Shown here: one piece after another, positions 1,588 to 12,026 of the stretch
Numbering within the stretch: position 1 is the first letter of the stretch
Layout: every line of letters starts with the position of its first letter
Source: Candidatus Sigynarchaeum calidifontis
GTDB taxonomy: Archaea > Asgardarchaeota > Lokiarchaeia > Sigyniarchaeales > Sigyniarchaeaceae
Assembly: GCA_030587475.2 (NCBI GenBank)
Contig: JAUQYZ020000131.1
Span: 1 to 12,187 of the forward strand
Direction of reading: 5' to 3'
DNA length: 12,187 bases
Notes under the pieces: generated by a model
Told to the model about the DNA's origin: nothing
Databases searched by the model: none
What the model saw: only the letters and a program-made list of their open reading frames with translations
Program-made: the position numbers and the translations under genes

Positions 1588-3384
1588 TCAAACATTCGCG
1601 CCACCACGCATTGCCAGGATTTCGGCCACGGTCGTGATATCATCCGGACTCTTGTCTTCGCGGATGCGGATGATCCGAGGGAACCGGATGGAAATGCCAA
1701 CGACGGTTGAAGCTGATTCGGTTATCTCGTCGCCAATGATCTCCAGCACGATGGTAGGATCTATCCACTTGTCCGGGGTTTCTCCGCTTCGCACGTTCGG
1801 CGGCGGCTTAGGGATCACGGTCAAGTTTTTCAAGAACCATTCCGCTTTCTCGTCATCCATGCCCGACGAAACCCGCGTGACCACGTCGAGGGTGCCCGTG
1901 TCCTCGTTTCGCGCGGCGACGAGTAGCGTTCCATACTGCCGTGCGCGGCGGCCCTCGCCCATGTTGACACCGACGACCACGAGCTCTATGGAATCCGGGA
2001 GCTTGCCCCGCTGGAGGCTCTTGAGCTTGATCCAGAGCCAGCCACGCGCCCCGGGCTGGTAGACCGATTCCGGCTTTATTGACTTGGTCAAGAGACCCTC
2101 CGTGCCATCCTTGATGGCCTGGTTGAAGTAAGCCGTGAGCTCGTCGAGCGTCGAGACGATCCGCTGGGGCACCGGGATCACCTTGTTCTGGGGCGGGTCG
2201 CGGGAGATGACCCGCTCAAGCGCCGCCCGCCGCTCGAGATACGGGACATCTAGCATGGAATGTCCATCGAGCAATATCACGTCGAAGGCATAATAACACG
2301 TCGGGATTTCCTCGCTTTTCTCTGCTACATCATGCTTCCGGCGACGCTGCATGAGCACCTGGAAGGCGATCAACTTGCCAGTTCCCTTCTCCACTGCTAC
2401 GACCTCGCCATCCATGATGATCTCCGATGCAATGACATGTTTCTTGACATTTTCGATGACATCCGGAAACTGGCTCGTGATGTTCTCTTGCCGCCGCGAG
2501 AACAAGATCACGTCATTCCCACGCTTGTGCACTTGCATCCGCTCGCCATCGAGCTTGTACTCGCACGCGAACGGGCCGCCGTGTTTCACGGGAAACTCCT
2601 CCAGCGTGTCTAGCCGCTGCGCGAGCATCGAGCGGATCGGGACGCCGATCTGCGGTTGGAACCGCTTTAGCGGCTCGATCCCTTCAAGCATTGCCGTCTT
2701 GATCACGTGGCCGAGATCGGGATAGATGTTATACGCGCGTTCGATGATCTCGCGATTCGCTGCTTGCCCGGCTTTGAGCGCGTCGGCCTCGTCCTTTTCT
2801 ACGCTTGTCACACCACCCGCAAGGAGGCGCGCGATGGCTTCGATCATGGTCAGGTCGTTCGCTCCGAGTCGCATCTTCCCGTCCACGAAGCGCCCGATAT
2901 ACTTGGCCTCCACGGCGCTGCATCGCCCGAGCAACCCGGCAAGGGCGCGGATCTTTTTTACTTGTGAGTCGGCACCTGCTAGCCCGGCAATTTGCACGAG
3001 AGCTGCATGCACTTCCGACACCATCAAGTTTTTTTCGCGGGTGATGAGCATCGATCGTGTTCCTTTTTGCTTGAGCATGGCGAATGTATTCCCGAGATCC
3101 CCGGATTTCTTGAGCAGATCTGACACCGTCTTTGGACTGAAGCCGGTCGCTTGTGCGATCGCCCGCTTCGCGAGCTCTTGGGCCATCTGCAGCTCGGGCT
3201 TCCCGAGAAAATCGGGATATAGCTTCCCCTGGCAAAAATAGATGATTTTATCATGGACAGGTTCGTTGTTTCCCTCAAAGAGATCATCTTGCATGAAGAT
3301 CTCCTGGAAAATGGCCATTATTTCGAGTCGCTTCGACGTGTTTTCCATGCGGGAAAGAAAGGAGCATAATTTTTTGAACATCAT
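1588..3384 (-). CDS. lig: ATP-dependent DNA ligase, archaeal/eukaryotic Lig1 type
   Basis: Motif I EYKLDGER (adenylated Lys), III IMDGEVV, IIIa YYAFDVI, IV TEGLLTK, V WIKLK, VI SIRFPRIIRIREDK, plus an N-terminal helical DNA-binding domain (SGDLG, GKMRLG). Start set at MMFKKL (3384). The ORF-track start at 3549 is probably over-extended; GTG at 3411 is an alternative. Confidence 0.96.
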   Translation of the reverse strand: MMFKKLCSFLSRMENTSKRLEIMAIFQEIFMQDDLFEGNNEPVHDKIIYFCQGKLYPDFLGKPELQMAQELAKRAIAQATGFSPKTVSDLLKKSGDLGNTFAMLKQKGTRSMLITREKNLMVSEVHAALVQIAGLAGADSQVKKIRALAGLLGRCSAVEAKYIGRFVDGKMRLGANDLTMIEAIARLLAGGVTSVEKDEADALKAGQAANREIIERAYNIYPDLGHVIKTAMLEGIEPLKRFQPQIGVPIRSMLAQRLDTLEEFPVKHGGPFACEYKLDGERMQVHKRGNDVILFSRRQENITSQFPDVIENVKKHVIASEIIMDGEVVAVEKGTGKLIAFQVLMQRRRKHDVAEKSEEIPTCYYAFDVILLDGHSMLDVPYLERRAALERVISRDPPQNKVIPVPQRIVSTLDELTAYFNQAIKDGTEGLLTKSIKPESVYQPGARGWLWIKLKSLQRGKLPDSIELVVVGVNMGEGRRARQYGTLLVAARNEDTGTLDVVTRVSSGMDDEKAEWFLKNLTVIPKPPPNVRSGETPDKWIDPTIVLEIIGDEITESASTVVGISIRFPRIIRIREDKSPDDITTVAEILAMRGGANV

Positions 3385-3570
3385 AAACTTATCATCGACT
3401 TTAGATTCCACGGGCCCGACATCGGCATTTCGATGGCCACTCCATCCTTTAGTGCAAAAGTGCTTAAACGACTCAAGGCTCAACAACATTGAAAGGATGC
3501 GTGCCGGGATGCCACGCAGCTCTATCAGTCCTAGGTACAATTCATGCATAAAAGGTCGATTGATAATCCC

Positions 3571-4656
3571 ATGGCAAGCAAACAGACGGGCGCCTTCACC
3601 GACTTCACCGCGTGGAACCTCGCGTTCATGTTGCTTTATTTTCTGAACGCGATAAACATCGCGCTCGATTTCAACAACCCTTTTTCTCGTGCCGGAGCAG
3701 TCGCACTCATGGGCGTGCAGTCGGGGCTCGTCGTTTTGCTAGCATTCACGCGGAAGCCGGTCACGGCCTTGATCTCAGCGATGGTTCCCGTCTGTTGCTT
3801 TTATGTTTATGCTTTCACCACCGGCATTACCAATAGCATGGGCCTATGGATCCCCGGGATTTCGGTCGGGGTTCCTGCATTCCACGTCATCTTCAGCGTG
3901 CTTGGGAGTATGCTCGTCCGCTGGATAAAGCCCCGGTGCATGGATACGGCACGGCCGGCGAGCATTCCCGGGCTCGAAATATTACCCGGCATCAATGATA
4001 AAGCGGACACGAGACGGATGATGGTTTCATGCCTCAAGCTTGCAACTATCGCTGCCATTGCGAGCGTGATCTACTGCATCGGTTTCCTCCTTGCATGGAT
4101 CGGGGATGCGGCAATGCGAGCGAACGCGCTCGCCTCCTTGCCCGTAATGGCAGGCATGAATTTCGGCCTTGTCGCGGCATTCATCGCGTCTCCCCGTGCT
4201 CCGCGTGTGATATACAACGCGGTCCTCACGCACCACGTGATCGAGGATGCAGACCATGCCATCGGTATCAAGCTGGGAAAATCGACCATCTTCCTTTGCA
4301 CGAGGTGCACGGCCATGCTTTCCGGCCTTTTCTTCAGCATGTACACGTTCGCGACCCTCCGGCTTCGTATCGACCAGTTCATGGCCTTCTTCCTCGACAT
4401 CTTCATTCCCGCGCCCGTTTTCATCGACTGGGGCCTCCAGCGATTCGGTTTTCGGAAAGCAACGACCCGATCTCGTATCATCACGGGGGCACTTACGGGG
4501 CTTGGCTTCGCGCTCGTCCCGCTTGCATCGCCCGGGTATGCGATGCACGCAGCCATCGTGCTAATGAGTTATTTCGCAATCTTTTTCTTGATATATTTCT
4601 TGAGCGCGAGGCGTGGATATTATTACAAGGCTGACGCGGAACCGGTCGAAGGATGA
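3571..4656 (+). CDS. polytopic membrane protein with C-terminal DUF2085 domain
   Basis: About 10 TM segments. 'LCTRCTAMLSG' and 'IDWGLQRFGFRKATTRSRIITGALTGLG' match the DUF2085 pattern (CxRC...DgxxQ...R..TG...G.G). ATG 3571 is preferred over 3544. Confidence 0.7.
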   Translation: MASKQTGAFTDFTAWNLAFMLLYFLNAINIALDFNNPFSRAGAVALMGVQSGLVVLLAFTRKPVTALISAMVPVCCFYVYAFTTGITNSMGLWIPGISVGVPAFHVIFSVLGSMLVRWIKPRCMDTARPASIPGLEILPGINDKADTRRMMVSCLKLATIAAIASVIYCIGFLLAWIGDAAMRANALASLPVMAGMNFGLVAAFIASPRAPRVIYNAVLTHHVIEDADHAIGIKLGKSTIFLCTRCTAMLSGLFFSMYTFATLRLRIDQFMAFFLDIFIPAPVFIDWGLQRFGFRKATTRSRIITGALTGLGFALVPLASPGYAMHAAIVLMSYFAIFFLIYFLSARRGYYYKADAEPVEG

Positions 4657-4729
4657 TGGCAAATGGAGGCTAGCTTGGAGACATGGTAGTTCAATTCAGT
4701 TAAATTCTAATGGTTAGAGAAGGATCTGG

Positions 4730-4760: not shown

Positions 4761-6590
4761 ATGACGGATTGCACGTCGTGCGGGCGTACGAATTCACCGC
4801 AAGCACGGTTCTGCATTAGCTGCGGCAAACCGCTGCCAAGAACCGACAAAGTAGAGTGTCCCAGGTGTAAAAAACTAAACAACAGCTACAACATGTTCTG
4901 CATCCACTGTGGAGCTAAGATCTCGCAGCCATCCGCCGAGTGGAAGGAGGCGGATTTGCGGGTGTCATCGCAACCAGCGGTCGAGGCCGCGTGGAAGGAT
5001 GAGAACATCATCTATTGCCCGAGCTGCAACTACGGGTGCCAGAAAGATTGGCCCGTGTGCCCGATGTGCAAGACGCCGCTCGGCGGAACCGGCCCGGGTA
5101 CGGGCGTGCCCATGTTCATCGACGATGCCGGCGATTCTGGCGATACCGCCGTGCCCGGGGGGCCGGTCTTCAAGCCAAAGGCAGCACCGACGCAGCAACT
5201 CAAGGCTTCCATCTTGAAGGCACTCGCGCCGGTCATCGCGAACATGGACGTGATCTCGATTCCCGAGCTTGCCCGCCAGGTAAACAGTGACGAGGAAACC
5301 GTCTCGACTATCGTGAAAGAACTCATCGCGACGGATGCGGTCGAGGGCCACATTGATGTTTCCACGAACGAGTTCATCTCCGAGGTAGATGGCTTGAGCC
5401 CGAGGGAATTGTTCATTGAAGAACCAACCGCGCCTGCATCCACGCCCGCAGCGAAACCACGTGCCGATACCGATTCCGCGCCAAAGATCGTCGGCGAGAG
5501 CGACATGTCCGATCTCAAGGCCGTCATCCAAAAAGAACGAGGCATGGACATCGATGATTTTGTCAAGGAGCTCGTCAACTCACTGGAAATCAAGCGAGGC
5601 TATGATTTCGAAGGTGGTCGCATTCACTTCAAGGTCGTGGTAAAGAACAACTCGAAGCTCGTCATCCATGACGTCAAGGTTTACCTGGATGTGTCGGACT
5701 TCTTCAAGACGGAAGAGGACGAGCAAGGCAGGAGCGTCCCGACGCTGAACCCGGGCGAGTCGCGCGGCATCGATTTCTATCTCGATCCAAAGAAATGCGG
5801 GACGGCCGAAATTTCCGCCACGGTCTTGTTCAAAGACATTTACGGGAAGCGCCACGCCAAGCTCGTGCCACCGGTCGAGGTGCAAGTGAAGCAGCCCATC
5901 ATCGCGCCGTCCAAATCAAGCATCGAGTACATCAAGGAGCAGACCTCGCGAATGGCTAGCGACATGAAGATGTTCGCGATCAAGGACCTGGATTCCGAGT
6001 TGCTTTACAACGCGGCCTTCCGCGCCATCTCCAAGTTCGACATGAGCTGCGCGCACGACGAGAAACGCCCTGATTCGCTGGAGGCATGGTTCTCCGCAGT
6101 TTCCAAGACAGACAAGGAACCCATCATCGCTCGCATCATCATGGGAACGACGGGCGAGCGGGTACTCGAGATACGCGTGTGGTGCAACGACGACAAGCAG
6201 CTCACGGGCTTCCTGGCCAAGATCATCACGAACTTGCGCGACGAGATCGAGCTCATCCGGCGCATCAAGGCCGAGGACAAGAGCCAGGCATTGAAACTGA
6301 TGGCCCTCGGGCGCAACATCGAGGTGCTCAAGAACTACGCGGGGTTGAACTGGGAGGCAGGCGATATATCCAATGTCTTGCACGAGGTAAAGGGGATCTT
6401 GATAAAATCGTTCAGCAATAGCAAGGACGTGCAAGGCGTGATCGCCGAGATCAACGTGTGGATCGACCGCATGAACGGCCTCAAGACAGACGAGCATATC
6501 AGCCAGGAATTCGGTAATCGACTCTACACGGATGTCGAGCATTGGCAGGACGTGATCAACATGCAACTCGGCATCGTACAGAAGAAATAA
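4761..6590 (+). CDS. multidomain protein: double zinc ribbon + zinc ribbon + PCI-like winged helix + beta-COP/adaptin-appendage-like Ig and platform domains + helical C-terminus
   Basis: Six CxxC pairs (CTSC/CISC, CPRC/CIHC, CPSC/CPMC). PCI-like segment 'ISIPELARQVNSDEETVSTIVKELIATDAVEGHID'. Ig-like segment 'FKVVVKNNS..IHDVKV..TLNPGES..'. An alpha/beta platform follows. Alternative start at 4710. Confidence 0.7.
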   Translation: MTDCTSCGRTNSPQARFCISCGKPLPRTDKVECPRCKKLNNSYNMFCIHCGAKISQPSAEWKEADLRVSSQPAVEAAWKDENIIYCPSCNYGCQKDWPVCPMCKTPLGGTGPGTGVPMFIDDAGDSGDTAVPGGPVFKPKAAPTQQLKASILKALAPVIANMDVISIPELARQVNSDEETVSTIVKELIATDAVEGHIDVSTNEFISEVDGLSPRELFIEEPTAPASTPAAKPRADTDSAPKIVGESDMSDLKAVIQKERGMDIDDFVKELVNSLEIKRGYDFEGGRIHFKVVVKNNSKLVIHDVKVYLDVSDFFKTEEDEQGRSVPTLNPGESRGIDFYLDPKKCGTAEISATVLFKDIYGKRHAKLVPPVEVQVKQPIIAPSKSSIEYIKEQTSRMASDMKMFAIKDLDSELLYNAAFRAISKFDMSCAHDEKRPDSLEAWFSAVSKTDKEPIIARIIMGTTGERVLEIRVWCNDDKQLTGFLAKIITNLRDEIELIRRIKAEDKSQALKLMALGRNIEVLKNYAGLNWEAGDISNVLHEVKGILIKSFSNSKDVQGVIAEINVWIDRMNGLKTDEHISQEFGNRLYTDVEHWQDVINMQLGIVQKK

Positions 6591-6766: not shown

Positions 6767-8035
6767 ATGGCTGCAGATACTTTCGGATCCTCTTCTTTGC
6801 GAGACATCGCAAAGATAAAGCGATTTCGCCGGAAAAGAGCATCTTCATACGATAGGACAGGCGGGAACATCGATTTCATCCTCATCGCGCCTGGCGAGCG
6901 CAAGGTCATCTTCGACACGCCTGGGCCCGGCTGCATCACGCACATTTGGACCACGCAGATGGCATGGAACGCGCCAGCGTGGCCAAGACACGTGATCCTC
7001 CGGATGTGGTGGGATGGTGAAGCGGAACCGAGCGTGGAATGCCCATTGGGAGATTTCTTCGGCCTGGGGCATGGCCAGAGACTTAACTTCGACTCGGAAC
7101 CCTTGCAAATGTCCCCGGATCACGGGAAGGGATTCAATTGCTGGTGGCCGATGCCGTTCAAGAAACATGTCCGCATCGAAATCGAGAACGACAACCCGAC
7201 GTCGAAAGTCCTGGATCCAGACCACCCGCTCAAGCTGCGACCAGGGATCATGCTCTATTATTACATCGATTACGAGATTTACGACGAGTGGCCGGCGGAG
7301 CCAGATTCACCGCTTGGCTATTTTCACGTCCAATTTCGATGCAATGACTACAAGGACCAGCGAACCGACTTCACCACGGGGAAGCGGATGAACTGGCTCG
7401 AATGGCAGGTTTTGAAAGGAAAGAACACTCGAGAAAACGGGGGCTACGACCGGAACCACGTCATCCTTGAAGCGAAAGGCACGGGGCATTATGTCGGATG
7501 CGTTATCAACATCGACAACCCGCGGCGGTGGTGGATGCCGATAATGAACTGGCCTGGCGAGGGTGACGACATGATATTCATCGACGATGATGTTGGTGGC
7601 GAACCAACGTTATACGGCACGGGCACAGAGGATTACGTCAACATGGCATTTTGTCCCCAGGAAAAATACAGCTCTGCATACCATGGCGTCATCAAGGGCG
7701 GGGGCTGGAATTGGGCGGGAAAAATCACCTATTACAGGTTTCATGTTCAGGACCGGATCACGTTCCAGAAGCAGATCAAGGTTACCATCGAGCACGGGCA
7801 CAACAACCACCGTGGCGGTCGATGGGAAACGACGGCGTACTGGTACCAGCTAGAACCCCATGCTGCATCGTTGAATCCCCCGTTGCCAACCAGGGAAGCC
7901 AGGATGCCGAGGCCATACCACGAAACTGCAGCGCGAATAGGAAAGAAAATTGCATCACTCGTCGTGAAAACAAGCCTCTACGTCTTGCTTGTCTACGCGA
8001 CTGTACTCGTTTTGCAAGTATTTGGCTTGATTTAA
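6767..8035 (+). CDS. DUF2961 / glycoside hydrolase family 172 protein with C-terminal transmembrane helix
   Basis: Family motifs SSYDRTGGN, GPGCITHIW, WDGE..PSVECPLGDFFG, FNCWWPMPF, G.GHYVG, WPGEGDD, YGTGTEDY, YYRFH..D.I.F, IEHGH, AYWYQ. Characterised GH172 enzymes act on alpha-D-arabinofuranosides and fructofuranosides; the substrate here is unproven. Confidence 0.9.
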   Translation: MAADTFGSSSLRDIAKIKRFRRKRASSYDRTGGNIDFILIAPGERKVIFDTPGPGCITHIWTTQMAWNAPAWPRHVILRMWWDGEAEPSVECPLGDFFGLGHGQRLNFDSEPLQMSPDHGKGFNCWWPMPFKKHVRIEIENDNPTSKVLDPDHPLKLRPGIMLYYYIDYEIYDEWPAEPDSPLGYFHVQFRCNDYKDQRTDFTTGKRMNWLEWQVLKGKNTRENGGYDRNHVILEAKGTGHYVGCVINIDNPRRWWMPIMNWPGEGDDMIFIDDDVGGEPTLYGTGTEDYVNMAFCPQEKYSSAYHGVIKGGGWNWAGKITYYRFHVQDRITFQKQIKVTIEHGHNNHRGGRWETTAYWYQLEPHAASLNPPLPTREARMPRPYHETAARIGKKIASLVVKTSLYVLLVYATVLVLQVFGLI

Positions 8036-8122: not shown

Positions 8123-8626
8123 TTAAACGTCGATACCATTCTCTTCGTAATATGTTGTAACCCATTCCCTTCCGAGAACGGCCAGCTTGATGGGTCCTTG
8201 AACCGTGAGATCGCCCTTGAAGAAATAGGAATCAGTGTTCGGGTTTCCCGCCATAATCTGCTTCATGGCTTCCGGCACCATCTCCAGCATCACCGGGTTT
8301 TTCCACTTGCCCTCGTCCTGGATCTCCTTCCAATTCCCCGTGTAGATGCCGAGCATGTGGTCTTTTTCGTTCTGCACCATGACGACCTTGATGGGGGTGT
8401 CCCTGACCTCGAAATATTGCGCCACCTCGCCGTATTGCAAGATGGCATCGTCGACGATCTCGCGGTAGCTCTTGTTCAGCAAACCGAACTCGGCCATCGC
8501 GCCGAAGAACAAGAGAACATCATCGAGGCTGTCGCCCCGGTAGTCTCCCGCCTTGTACTTGGCGAGCCACTTCTCGTTACATCCCTTGACTTCCGCTTCG
8601 TCCTTTATCCACCTGGTTATCGGCAT
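8123..8626 (-). CDS. SCP2 sterol/lipid-binding domain protein
   Basis: C-terminal 'PVMLEMVPEAMKQIMAGNPNTDSYFFKGDLTVQGPIKLAV' matches the SCP2 signature (..i..G.l.p..af..Gkl.v.Gd...a). SD-like GAGGTG lies at 8637-8642. Confidence 0.75.
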   Translation of the reverse strand: MPITRWIKDEAEVKGCNEKWLAKYKAGDYRGDSLDDVLLFFGAMAEFGLLNKSYREIVDDAILQYGEVAQYFEVRDTPIKVVMVQNEKDHMLGIYTGNWKEIQDEGKWKNPVMLEMVPEAMKQIMAGNPNTDSYFFKGDLTVQGPIKLAVLGREWVTTYYEENGIDV

Positions 8627-8646: not shown

Positions 8647-9684
8647 TCATGATATCATCGCGCTGATGCGCTTGATAGCGGCCTCGGCTCCCTTCACGAT
8701 GTCGTCGATGATGTCCTTGACGTTCTTGATGTCGTTGATGATGCCGATCGACTGGCCGAGCAGCACGGCGCCGTTTTGGATGTCGCCCTTGTAGGTTAGC
8801 TCGTAATGGCGTTGATCCTCCATCAACGCCTTGACATCGAGGCTTTGCTCTTGCGCGATCTTGGCATCCTTGTTCTCGACGACGGGATGGGATTTCGCAT
8901 ATTCATTGTTCCAGAGCCGGATCGGGCCAAATACCCCCGTGTACAGGTTCGTGTCGGTATCTTTCGCGCCCGGTATGATTTTCTTGTATTCATCGTGGAA
9001 CTCGGATTCCTTCGATGCGATGAACCTCGAGCCCATTGCGATGGCGCCCGCACCGAGGGCCAGCGCTGCAGCGAGACTTTCGCCAGTCGCGAAACCACCA
9101 CACGCGACCTTCGGTATATCCGGCCAAGCTTGCTGGGCCTCCTGGAGAAGCACGAGAGTCGAGACCTTCTCGTAAGACTGGTGGCCGCCACCCTCCGTCC
9201 CCGTGAGCACGAGCCCCTCGACACCCCGCGCGACGCATTTTTCAGCGAGCCACTTTGCAGGCGCGACATGAAAATGCATGGTATTCGGATTGGACTCCTT
9301 GAGTTTTTTCCACGTCACGGTTTCTGGCAGCATGGTCGGGCTGCCAGCGCTGGTGAGCGCATAGACGCACTGTTCGCGCAATTTCTGGTTTTCCATGATA
9401 AACCGCGGGATGCGCCGGCATAGCATGTCGGCATCGGGCTGCATGCGTGCCGTCCGGATATTGAAGCCGAAGGGTTTGTCTGTGTGTTCAATGACCTTGA
9501 GCATGTTGTTCTGCATTTCCTTGAGAGAATCCTTGCCCTCGAGATTCGTGTGCGATAGAACACCCAGCCCGCCGGCCTCCGAGACAGCTATCGTGAGCTC
9601 GGTCGTGTAAAACGGGCCCATTGGAGCGGAGATGATGGGCACTTTCATCCCCAGCCGTTCCATTAGTTTCGTCTTGATTGCCAT
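8647..9684 (-). CDS. nitronate monooxygenase / FabK-like FMN-dependent oxidoreductase
   Basis: PIISAPMG, AVSEAGGLG, TDKPFGFN, G-x-EGGGH (catalytic His), ACGG..G..LAAALALGA..I.MGSRF.ASKES, and GQSIG.I motifs. Confidence 0.9.
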   Translation of the reverse strand: MAIKTKLMERLGMKVPIISAPMGPFYTTELTIAVSEAGGLGVLSHTNLEGKDSLKEMQNNMLKVIEHTDKPFGFNIRTARMQPDADMLCRRIPRFIMENQKLREQCVYALTSAGSPTMLPETVTWKKLKESNPNTMHFHVAPAKWLAEKCVARGVEGLVLTGTEGGGHQSYEKVSTLVLLQEAQQAWPDIPKVACGGFATGESLAAALALGAGAIAMGSRFIASKESEFHDEYKKIIPGAKDTDTNLYTGVFGPIRLWNNEYAKSHPVVENKDAKIAQEQSLDVKALMEDQRHYELTYKGDIQNGAVLLGQSIGIINDIKNVKDIIDDIVKGAEAAIKRISAMIS

Positions 9685-9806: not shown

Positions 9807-11897
9807 TCACACGAGATCCTCGAACCTGGTCGGCCCGATGCCATAAGATAGCTTCAGCACTTGAAACACCTTGTCTCGCTCGATCTCGTCGAGGAACGAG
9901 GATCGTTTCATGATTGTCGTCTTGTTAAAGGACCACCGTGCTTGTGCATAGGTGAAATAGAGCTCCTTTCGTGCCCTCGTTGAGGCCACGTAAAAGAGCC
10001 GTCGCTCCTCTTCAAGGTCATCCGGGTGATCCATCGAGAGAGCATGGGGTAACAAAGTTTCCGCAGTGCCGATCACGTAGACCACGTCCCATTCTAGGCC
10101 CTTGGCTTGATGGATGGTCGACAAGACAAGCGGCTTCTCGTCCTTGGCCTTGTCCGCGTTCTTGGTCGTTTCCCCCACGAACGTTTCCGAAATGGCGATT
10201 TCCTCCAGCAACTCCTGCAGCGACGGGTACTTGCCGGCGATCGTGACGAACTCGCGCAACTCGAGAAGCCGATCGTCGGCATCTTCGTGCTTGTCCTTCA
10301 AGAGGGGCTCGTAGATCTTGAGCACCGCGTCGAAGAACTCGTCTGGCTTGGGCAATTTCTCGGCGGGAATGGGAATGCCGGTCTTTTCATCAATGGCGAT
10401 ACTCTTGTAAAACGCTTGGAGCGATGCCAACCTCGTGATGGAATCCGCTTGGACGCGCTTCCCCTTGAGCTCGACTTTCAAGTTTGCAGTGGCGAAGCAT
10501 GCAAGCGGTTGCGATGACTGGAGCAGCGCGGCCACGACGCGCTCGACCGATGCAGGACCCATGCCTGGATACAACCCGAGAATCCTCGACCATGCGATCT
10601 CGTTGCGCGGGTTCTGGACGACGAGACCGAAGGCGAGCAAGTCCTTCACGTGGGCCGTCTCGTAGAACTTCAGTCCTGCACGCTTGATGTAAGGGATCTT
10701 ATAGGTGAGCAAGGCCTTCTCCAGGATCAAGCTCTGGAAGGCAGCGCGGAACAAGACGGCTTGCTCGTGGTAGGGGACTCCACTTTTTGCCGTCTCTATG
10801 ACCTTCTGGCAGATGAAATTCGATTCCTCGTCATCGTCCATGCACGGGACGACTTGTGGTAACTTCCCCTTCGCGGCCCTCGTCTTGAGATCCTTCTTGA
10901 ATTGTTTCTTGTTGTGCTTGATACTCGCATTCGCGAAATGAAGTATCTGCGGCGTGCTGCGGTAATTCTCCGTGAGGAAGTACTTGCGCACGTTGGGCAA
11001 GAGCACCTCGAAATCGAGCATGTGCTGCACGCTTGCGCCTCTGAATGAATAGATGGACTGTGCATCGTCACCCACGACCATCGCGCTGTCCGCGCGCCGG
11101 GCGATCTCGATGACAATGTCCGCTTGGAGCTGGTTCACGTCTTGATACTCGTCGACCAGTATGTGCCGAACTTGCTTGAAGATGCGCTCATTTACTGGTT
11201 CCATCCGGAGTAACCGCAAAAAATAGATTAGAAGGTCGTCGAAATCCATAAAATTATTTTTTTTCTTGAGATCGACGTACCGTGCAAGAGCGTGGCTGAT
11301 ATCTTGCTCCAGATCGATGAACTGGCGGTAGAAACTGGCCAGGATTTCTTTCACTTGCAAGTGCATGTTGTTCGCACGTGAATAGATATTGACAAGGTCG
11401 CTCGGGCGGGGATACCGTTTTTTTTCCTCTGGATCCTTGTTGCCGGTCACTTCCCCGAGTGCCTTCTTCATGAGTTGTTGTGCGTCGCTATCATCGAGGA
11501 TCGTGAAATTGGGCTCAAATCCAAGAAGCTTAGCGTGCCTTCGAAGAAAACGATTCGCGACCGAATGGAATGTCCCTGAAAGAAGTTTACCTCGCGCAAA
11601 ATTGACAAGCTTTTGAACCCTGCTAGTCATTTCCTCCGCGGCTTTTTTCGTGAACGTGACGAGCATGATCGATTGCGGCAGCGCGCCTTGCTCGATGAGC
11701 CGGGCCACGCGATACGTGAGCACGCGTGTTTTTCCCGATCCCGCCCCTGCAACAACAATGGCATTTCCCTTGTCGTGCATCACGGCCTGGTATTGCTCGT
11801 CGTTCAATTTCCCGGCATAATCTATGGTGTTCGCCACCGGCGGGGGTTTTATCACGAACACGTTGCCCGGCAACTCATCATCGTCGCGATCGCTCAT
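9807..11897 (-). CDS. UvrD/PcrA/Rep-family (SF1A) ATP-dependent DNA helicase
   Basis: Q-motif LNDEQ, Walker A AGAGSGKT, Ia VTFTKKAA, GTFHS, Walker B VDEYQD, III VGDDAQSIYSFRGA, IV NYRST, V STIHQAKGLEW, VI EERRLFYVASTRA. Start set at MSDRDDD (11897); the ORF track extends to GTG 12014. Confidence 0.95.
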   Translation of the reverse strand: MSDRDDDELPGNVFVIKPPPVANTIDYAGKLNDEQYQAVMHDKGNAIVVAGAGSGKTRVLTYRVARLIEQGALPQSIMLVTFTKKAAEEMTSRVQKLVNFARGKLLSGTFHSVANRFLRRHAKLLGFEPNFTILDDSDAQQLMKKALGEVTGNKDPEEKKRYPRPSDLVNIYSRANNMHLQVKEILASFYRQFIDLEQDISHALARYVDLKKKNNFMDFDDLLIYFLRLLRMEPVNERIFKQVRHILVDEYQDVNQLQADIVIEIARRADSAMVVGDDAQSIYSFRGASVQHMLDFEVLLPNVRKYFLTENYRSTPQILHFANASIKHNKKQFKKDLKTRAAKGKLPQVVPCMDDDEESNFICQKVIETAKSGVPYHEQAVLFRAAFQSLILEKALLTYKIPYIKRAGLKFYETAHVKDLLAFGLVVQNPRNEIAWSRILGLYPGMGPASVERVVAALLQSSQPLACFATANLKVELKGKRVQADSITRLASLQAFYKSIAIDEKTGIPIPAEKLPKPDEFFDAVLKIYEPLLKDKHEDADDRLLELREFVTIAGKYPSLQELLEEIAISETFVGETTKNADKAKDEKPLVLSTIHQAKGLEWDVVYVIGTAETLLPHALSMDHPDDLEEERRLFYVASTRARKELYFTYAQARWSFNKTTIMKRSSFLDEIERDKVFQVLKLSYGIGPTRFEDLV

Positions 11898-12026
11898 TGT
11901 TACTTTGCGCCCGAGCATGAACCATGATCGAATGTCATTAAGAAATCCACGATCAGCCGCATTAAGACCTTTGATCCTCGCATGAATTTCTGAAAACCCA
12001 TGCGCGTCAATCACGGATTAGAAAAC

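Follow-up and report, generated by a model that had tools for sequence, protein, structure and literature searches.

The locus studied here raises the question of whether one archaeal protein joins modules that eukaryotes separate into proteostasis and trafficking complexes and, if so, what kind of system it serves. In the window, the whole 12,187-nucleotide stretch of Candidatus Sigynarchaeum calidifontis DNA that was analyzed, an open reading frame (ORF) of 609 aa occupies positions 4761–6590 of the forward strand. A sequence-only reading had listed in it zinc ribbons, a PCI-like winged helix, an appendage-like module, and a helical tail, connected by flexible linkers, and had proposed a scaffold belonging to an undescribed Asgard coat/adaptor system. 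Homologues and an architecture census confirmed the ORF and the listed modules and gave the layout as double zinc ribbon (DZR), third ribbon, winged helix (WH), Ig-like domain, platform, and Vps28 C-terminal domain (Vps28-CTD).

The nearest named relative, at 90% identity, is a protein of Ca. Sigynarchaeum springense; it is one of 19 close homologues (43–90% identity), and the other 18 (43–87%) share the layout. Close orthologues also share the Met at 4761, which is therefore the likely start, rather than an upstream ATG at 4710; a zinc ribbon forms the N-terminus of the protein. The AlphaFold model has a mean pLDDT of 69.5, with the folded domains mostly at 70–90. As had been read from the letters, the chain contains a Gly/Pro-rich flexible linker (5082–5189, +; pLDDT <50 at residues 109–142) and a Pro/Ala/Thr-rich one of variable length (5388–5498, +), both modeled with low confidence and poorly conserved (0.38 and 0.25, respectively). 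Conservation is 0.60 in the Vps28-CTD and 0.76–0.78 in the appendage-like module, or ear, which is the most conserved of the chain's large parts. Ahead of the Ig domain, a short helix pair (5499–5576, +; predicted helices at residues 249–260 and 264–274) is conserved in the alignments of the three-ribbon subfamily to which the protein belongs. The 609-aa chain has no transmembrane (TM) segment (maximum 19-residue hydropathy 1.53), and this, together with the domain layout, supports the suggested cytoplasmic multimodule scaffold. A promoter and terminator scan gave signals at chance level only, and a DUF6659 match under the cut-off (E 1e-4) was set aside as probable chance.

The C-terminal tail had been described as a ~115-aa amphipathic helical segment. 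It is helical, but its identity had been missed: residues 508–603 (6282–6569, +) form the four-helix bundle of the Vps28-CTD of ESCRT-I. Three methods agree on this assignment. In distant homologues and paralogues, the final 100 residues score above the Pfam VPS28 cut-off (E 5e-9), and with a profile of the C-terminal module the top four matches among all PDB sequences were Vps28-CTD structures (E 0.006). The model of the tail superimposes on the yeast Vps28-CTD (2j9u_A) with Z 11.1 and rmsd 1.9 over 93 of 94 residues, a Z that helical bundles can reach by chance and of which the sequence evidence is independent. Single-sequence searches were blind to the domain: phmmer returned 0 matches in the PDB, Pfam VPS28 did not match this protein, and a VPS28 family search of the genome came back empty, so that the tail is detectable only through paralogues, profile, and fold.

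In eukaryotes, the Vps28-CTD binds ESCRT-II and CHMP6, and human Vps28 requires F206, D207, and E209 for the binding of CHMP6 (PMC4772496). Mapped via the yeast alignment, the acidic pair of this F-D-x-E surface is kept in the three-ribbon subfamily (D591 in 15 of 16 members, E593 in 12 of 16), while the Phe is lost and mostly replaced by Thr or Asn. In helix 1, both ordinary Lokiarchaeia Vps28 and the parent paralogue described below have an invariant Asp, at whose position the three-ribbon subfamily has Asn, Thr, or Tyr. The steadiness box is absent: a Lokiarchaeia Vps28 profile gives no match to this protein, and in the paralogues the Pfam VPS28 match begins no earlier than position 87. Lacking the box, the protein cannot join a Vps23/Vps37 headpiece. 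A complex prediction for the Vps28-CTD and the Vps22 of this genome returned "no answer" with a score of 0.00 and weighs neither way.

The module preceding the bundle proved to be a true ear of the adaptin/COP type, as its description as appendage-like had implied. It consists of an Ig-like (GAE) sandwich (residues 273–378; 5577–5894, +) and a TBP-like platform subdomain (residues 379–500; 5895–6260, +). By Foldseek, the ear matched COPI at E 4e-10 and the alpha-adaptin ear at E 3e-8, with the COPI and alpha/beta-adaptin matches ranging from 4e-10 to 1e-7. The platform superimposes on the beta4-adaptin appendage (2mj7) with Z 12.0 and rmsd 2.7 over 118 aligned residues.

Among representatives at 50% identity, 1057 are related to the ear module, and they fall into four layouts: a ~790-aa form with multiple winged helices; the three-ribbon form of this protein; a form with about 170 further residues after the Vps28-CTD, consistent with published longin fusions; and one in which a ~55-residue tail replaces the Vps28-CTD, with a zinc ribbon in one example inspected by eye. 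A distant ear protein of this genome (G000:C133:14731-16146, +; L103) likewise ends in a zinc ribbon instead of a Vps28-CTD. Named members of the family are Asgard, which supports confinement to these archaea. Records labeled Bathyarchaeota, Nanopelagicaceae, Thorarchaeota, and Hodarchaeota were rejected as a wider range: the four loci checked were syntenic with Lokiarchaeia, and the metagenome-assembled genomes concerned (L008, L013, L052, and L081) are probably mislabeled or misbinned, L013 having 95–99% protein identity to a Lokiarchaeia locus.

Most genomes of the order carry the ~790-aa form, cog.003822, Promethearchaeum syntrophicum and Ca. Lokiarchaeum ossiferum among them; the ESM Atlas yielded this parent family alone (at 0.86), as a lead. 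The three-ribbon form was found in three of the four genomes of the Sigynarchaeum family and in none elsewhere among 400 genomes of the phylum; this genome (G000) and two others (G159 and G160) carry both paralogues. In a quick, midpoint-rooted tree, the three-ribbon form is a separate clade, sister to the parent (SH-aLRT 100), and the other copy in this genome, on contig C40, falls in the parent clade. That parent gene is split between two contigs (G000:C101:3-1484, –, and C40:1-1227, +), whose ends have 50 identical bases in common. Identity between this protein and the parent is 37–39% over the C-terminal 335 aa. The gene and the pan-Lokiarchaeia cog.003822 are sister paralogues that differ in their N-terminal halves, this one being the lineage-specific duplicate; it is not a cog.003822 orthologue, nor is the protein a Vps28, a full PCI subunit, or an adaptin.

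The genome also encodes Vps22, Vps25, and four ESCRT-III subunits. Vps4 is missing from the assembly, probably through a contig break at Vps25, beside which it lies in three sister genomes; the Vps4-Vps25-Vps22 cluster of the sister genomes has no recognizable ESCRT-I gene adjoining it. A Lokiarchaeia Vps28 profile that matches 133 of 160 genomes of the class (a few over the steadiness box only) found no ordinary Vps28 in any of the four family genomes, which are 63–89% complete and where a very divergent copy is possible; in this genome, Vps28-CTDs were thus detected in the two ear fusions alone. Another family, too, includes near-complete genomes that are without an ordinary Vps28, and these have no such duplicate. 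Searches with steadiness-box and UEV families gave no match, but their controls were equally silent, making them uninformative. Sigynarchaeota have been reported to lack Vps28 and EAP30 domains (10.1101/2021.04.02.438162). Our results agree on the absence of an ordinary Vps28 and qualify the rest, as Vps28-CTDs persist in the two ear fusions and, contrary to that report, all four family genomes (L001 and L106–L108) contain EAP30/Vps22.

Other genes of these systems were recorded in passing. A gene for a zinc-ribbon membrane protein lies upstream of the ordinary Vps28 genes of Lokiarchaeia (L111, L112, L119, and L120); in this genome that gene is at G000:C22:28507-29490, and no Vps28 follows it. 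A 471-aa protein with C-terminal EAP30-type winged helices is encoded outside the ESCRT cluster (G000:C221:5599-7023, +; L002). A ubiquitin operon (G000:C26; L105:1851-7949) encodes a ubiquitin-like protein, E1-like, E2, and JAB-like proteins, a membrane protein that ends in a finger of RING-like type, and a 585-aa protein carrying a ubiquitin-like domain close to the C-terminus, the E1, JAB, and RING assignments having been made by eye.

Fusions of this general kind are already in the literature, and the system is not "undescribed" as first thought. Liu 2020/21 and Makarova 2024 describe fused zinc-binding domains, UFL1-like winged helices, adaptin ears, and Vps28 C-terminal domains. Liu 2020/21 reported Asgard proteins in which Vps28, C-terminal domains of adaptin/COPI, and UFL1 are fused, and predicted that they remodel membranes in a ubiquitin-dependent manner. 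Makarova 2024 lists cog.003822 with the same order of parts, proposes the Vps28-C/adaptin-appendage proteins as functional analogues of ESCRT-0, and suggests that they could reach ESCRT-II without a core ESCRT-I. In the part of its text consulted, the form with three ribbons and a single WH is not mentioned, although the exact architecture may already be drawn in the figures of either paper. In the literature surveyed, we found no experimental test of any member of the ear–Vps28-CTD class. What is new here is the three-ribbon subfamily, the narrow range in which it occurs, and the fact that it coincides with an undetectable ESCRT-I.

On balance, we think it probable that the protein is a soluble, flexible cytosolic adaptor of the ESCRT-0/I type that docks partners on ESCRT-II/III. 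The ear and the N-terminal modules (the ribbons, a Trp-acidic motif described below, and the acidic WH) would bind protein partners, for example, membrane proteins through their cytosolic tails, or other scaffolds. The Vps28-CTD would then dock on ESCRT-II (Vps22) and/or an ESCRT-III subunit, with no need for a steadiness-box ESCRT-I core, and Vps25, ESCRT-III, and Vps4 would remodel the membrane at the docking site. The duplicate would add a second input specificity to a shared ear–Vps28-CTD output. We prefer this reading because the identity of the Vps28-CTD was reached by three methods and its acidic D/E pair is kept; because lokiarchaeal ESCRT-I (Vps28 and/or Vps23) interacts with Vps22 in a two-hybrid assay (Hatano et al.; PMC9192718) and ESCRT and ubiquitin genes are present in the genome; and because the family genomes have no detectable ordinary Vps28 and Makarova 2024 proposes such a role for the class. 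Against the adaptor reading stand the partly eroded Vps28 surface, the lower conservation of the Vps28-CTD than of the ear, the near-complete genomes of another family that have neither an ordinary Vps28 nor the duplicate, and the location of the gene, which is not near ESCRT or ubiquitin genes and has a DNA ligase, DUF2085, GH172, and UvrD as its neighbors; among the recurrent neighbors of the parent family, judged by eye, no ESCRT gene was recognized either.

Among the alternatives, a scaffold of the type found in the BBSome or the Fanconi core, in which the Ig-platform-bundle unit pairs the two paralogues or two copies and the bundle is a dimerization or capping element only, appears rather unlikely. 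Foldseek aligned the protein to such subunits over 318–443 columns (E 6e-8 to 4e-6), but with an rmsd of 12–27; the coexistence of both paralogues in three genomes and the partial loss of the canonical Vps28 surface would also fit. The profile of the bundle, however, singles out Vps28 among all PDB sequences, and the D/E pair is kept. BBS2, BBS7, and BBS9 have a beta-propeller and a coiled coil, and this chain has neither.

An unlikely extension of the adaptor reading is that the Sigynarchaeum family lost its steadiness-box ESCRT-I and that the duplicate replaces ESCRT-0/I in one chain: the third ribbon or the ribbon array would read ubiquitin-tagged cargo, the ear would bind sorting motifs, and the Vps28 bundle would pass the cargo to ESCRT-II/III. 

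The double ribbon (Cys4–Cys50; 4770–4910, +) matches Pfam DZR at E 2e-10, both of its ribbons have the RanBP2/NZF-like spacing CxxC-x3-N-x6-CxxC, and its best PDB matches are DZANK1 and RanBP2-type fingers. The third ribbon, seen in the alignment as CxxC-x10-CxxC (Cys86–Cys103; 5016–5069, +), had also been correctly recognized; it has an invariant Asn-Tyr, a fifth invariant Cys, and a Met before the last Cys. All three ribbons have the NZF spacing CxxC-x10-CxxC, and ubiquitin-binding NZF fingers are marked by Thr-Phe/Tyr after the second Cys (PMC12805371). That motif is missing from all three, which have Gly-Arg, Lys-Lys, and Asn-Tyr in its place, and ubiquitin binding is unsupported. Ser and His precede the last Cys of the first two ribbons, and Met or Ile that of ribbon 3, which with its Asn-Tyr and Met retains half of the NZF motif; NZF is absent among the PDB matches of ribbon 3. 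A RING finger was rejected for this ribbon: the matches have E 0.002 or worse and align the terminal CxxC pairs alone.

Upstream of ribbon 3, in a disordered linker, the alignment shows a short W-x-E-x-[DE]-L motif (4941–4958, +), a candidate peptide ligand, which precedes this ribbon in 15 of 20 subfamily sequences. Elsewhere in the genome, a protein with no Pfam match (G000:C160:3188-4723, +; L101) has W-T-E-x-E-L three times in tandem and then a ribbon of the ribbon-3 type, which suggests that motif and ribbon form a mobile cassette. A vWA-domain protein (G000:C73:2022-3269, –; L100) ends at its C-terminus in more zinc fingers and a ribbon-3-type finger.

A scaffold of the ubiquitin system, of the UFL1/DDRGK1 or PCI-complex type, seems distinctly unlikely. 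The WH would extend the WH array of the paralogue or join a PCI ring and serve modifier ligation or degradation, not membrane sorting. The domain itself (residues 144–209; 5190–5387, +) is a single, acidic winged helix of the PCI/DDRGK1 type, as Pfam, profile, and fold indicate. In isolation it scores 24.1 bits with Pfam PCI (cut-off 22), a family matched by 12 of 13 orthologues, and by profile it is closest to DDRGK1 (E 3e-7), then CSN2 (E 2e-4) and CSN4. This likeness, the match of the parent paralogue to Pfam E3_UFM1_ligase (E 1e-13), and the ubiquitin operon and several PCI-type proteins of the genome favor such a role. Yet the protein has only one WH, and the helical repeats that directly precede it in lid, CSN, and eIF3 subunits are absent, the disordered Gly/Pro linker standing there instead; membership in a ring of that type therefore does not follow. 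Moreover, the ear, not the WH, is best conserved, and elsewhere the ear–Vps28-CTD unit is preceded by HTH, Ig, FG-GAP, or further kinds of N-terminus that lack a PCI-type WH.

The model originally proposed, a COPI/AP-like coat subunit whose winged helix mediates self-assembly and whose partners are small GTPases, we regard as quite improbable, both the coat and the self-assembly being unsupported. The true two-subdomain ear on flexible linkers speaks for it, as does a distant ear protein annotated as a Rab-family GTPase fusion. The chain nevertheless has no solenoid trunk and no membrane anchor, ears also occur in noncoat archaeal ESCRT loci, and a coat leaves unexplained the Vps28-CTD, which points to ESCRT. 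The surroundings of the gene give the coat no support either. By Pfam, the window encodes an EamA-like transporter (167–1087, +), an ATP-dependent DNA ligase (1588–3549, –), and a DUF2085 membrane protein (3544–4656, +) upstream, and a DUF2961/GH172 protein (6767–8035, +), an SCP2-like protein (8123–8626, –), a nitronate monooxygenase family protein (8647–9684, –), and a UvrD helicase (9807–12014, –) downstream. A 121-aa ORF (1159–1524, –) has no Pfam match; in two relatives (L094 and L095), an ORF of 121–123 aa flanks the ligase on the corresponding side. The order of the neighbors is largely conserved in relatives, with GH172 codirectional here and convergent in L094, L095, and L099, and this conserved neighborhood contains no ESCRT, ubiquitin, trafficking, GTPase, or coat genes.

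A DNA-binding regulator with an ordinary winged HTH is highly improbable: DNA-binding winged helices (Z 8.8–9.3) lie within one to two Z units of CSN2 (Z 10.6) and close to UFL1/DDRGK1 (Z 9.4), so that fold alone is not decisive, and in some relatives the ear module is joined to MarR/ArsR-like HTHs, but in the profile search the best DNA-binding HTH (E 0.46 or worse) trails DDRGK1 by about six orders of magnitude, and the WH is net acidic (D+E > K+R) in 13 of 13 orthologues. Neither outcome that the sequence-only reading had named as refuting its proposal was observed: the WH did not resolve as an ordinary DNA-binding HTH, and the full architecture did not prove widespread in bacteria or non-Asgard archaea.

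The three-ribbon protein reveals no new coat system. The ear–Vps28-CTD proteins of Asgard archaea are the most direct physical link between a coat-adaptor ear and ESCRT in a prokaryote. Being small and soluble, and coming from a family in which no ordinary Vps28 is detectable while Vps4, ESCRT-II, and ESCRT-III remain, this one offers a clean case in which to ask if fusions of this kind can take the place of ESCRT-I.

Compared with known systems, the protein combines parts found elsewhere in other settings. With eukaryotic Vps28 (PDB 2j9u, 2g3k, and 2j9w), it shares the four-helix bundle, an invariant Trp, and the acidic D-x-E pair, but it is without the steadiness box and has other residues in place of the F-D-x-E Phe and the helix-1 Asp. 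The yeast Vps28 bundle also binds an NZF. The Ig and platform ear on a flexible hinge is that of the AP-2 alpha/beta, AP-4 beta, and gamma/beta-COP appendages and of the BBSome GAE-platform, at 10–13% identity; here the Vps28 bundle follows the ear, which is not the end of the chain. The large subunits of AP and COPI have the same two-subdomain ear on a hinge, whereas their N-terminal HEAT/solenoid trunk is absent from the 609-aa chain. For residues 144–209, the winged helices of DDRGK1/UFL1 and CSN2/CSN4 are the best sequence and fold matches; unlike DDRGK1, the protein has no TM anchor, and unlike full PCI domains, its WH is single and isolated, with no helical repeats. The Vps28-C and appendage class, as set out in Makarova 2024, has its Vps28-C, Ig and TBP-like platform, and HTH/PCI accessory domain all represented here, together with a patchy, lineage-restricted architecture, while longin, TPR, and extra Ig domains are not part of this chain. 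Closest is the parent cog.003822, from which the protein differs in gene neighborhood, in the loss of the helix-1 Asp from the CTD, in length (about 600 aa against about 790), in its match to E3_UFM1_ligase (E 0.007 against 1e-13), and in having three small ribbons and one WH where the parent has a larger zinc-binding region and a UFL1-like array of multiple winged helices; the order from zinc-binding region through WH, Ig, and platform to Vps28-CTD is the same in both.
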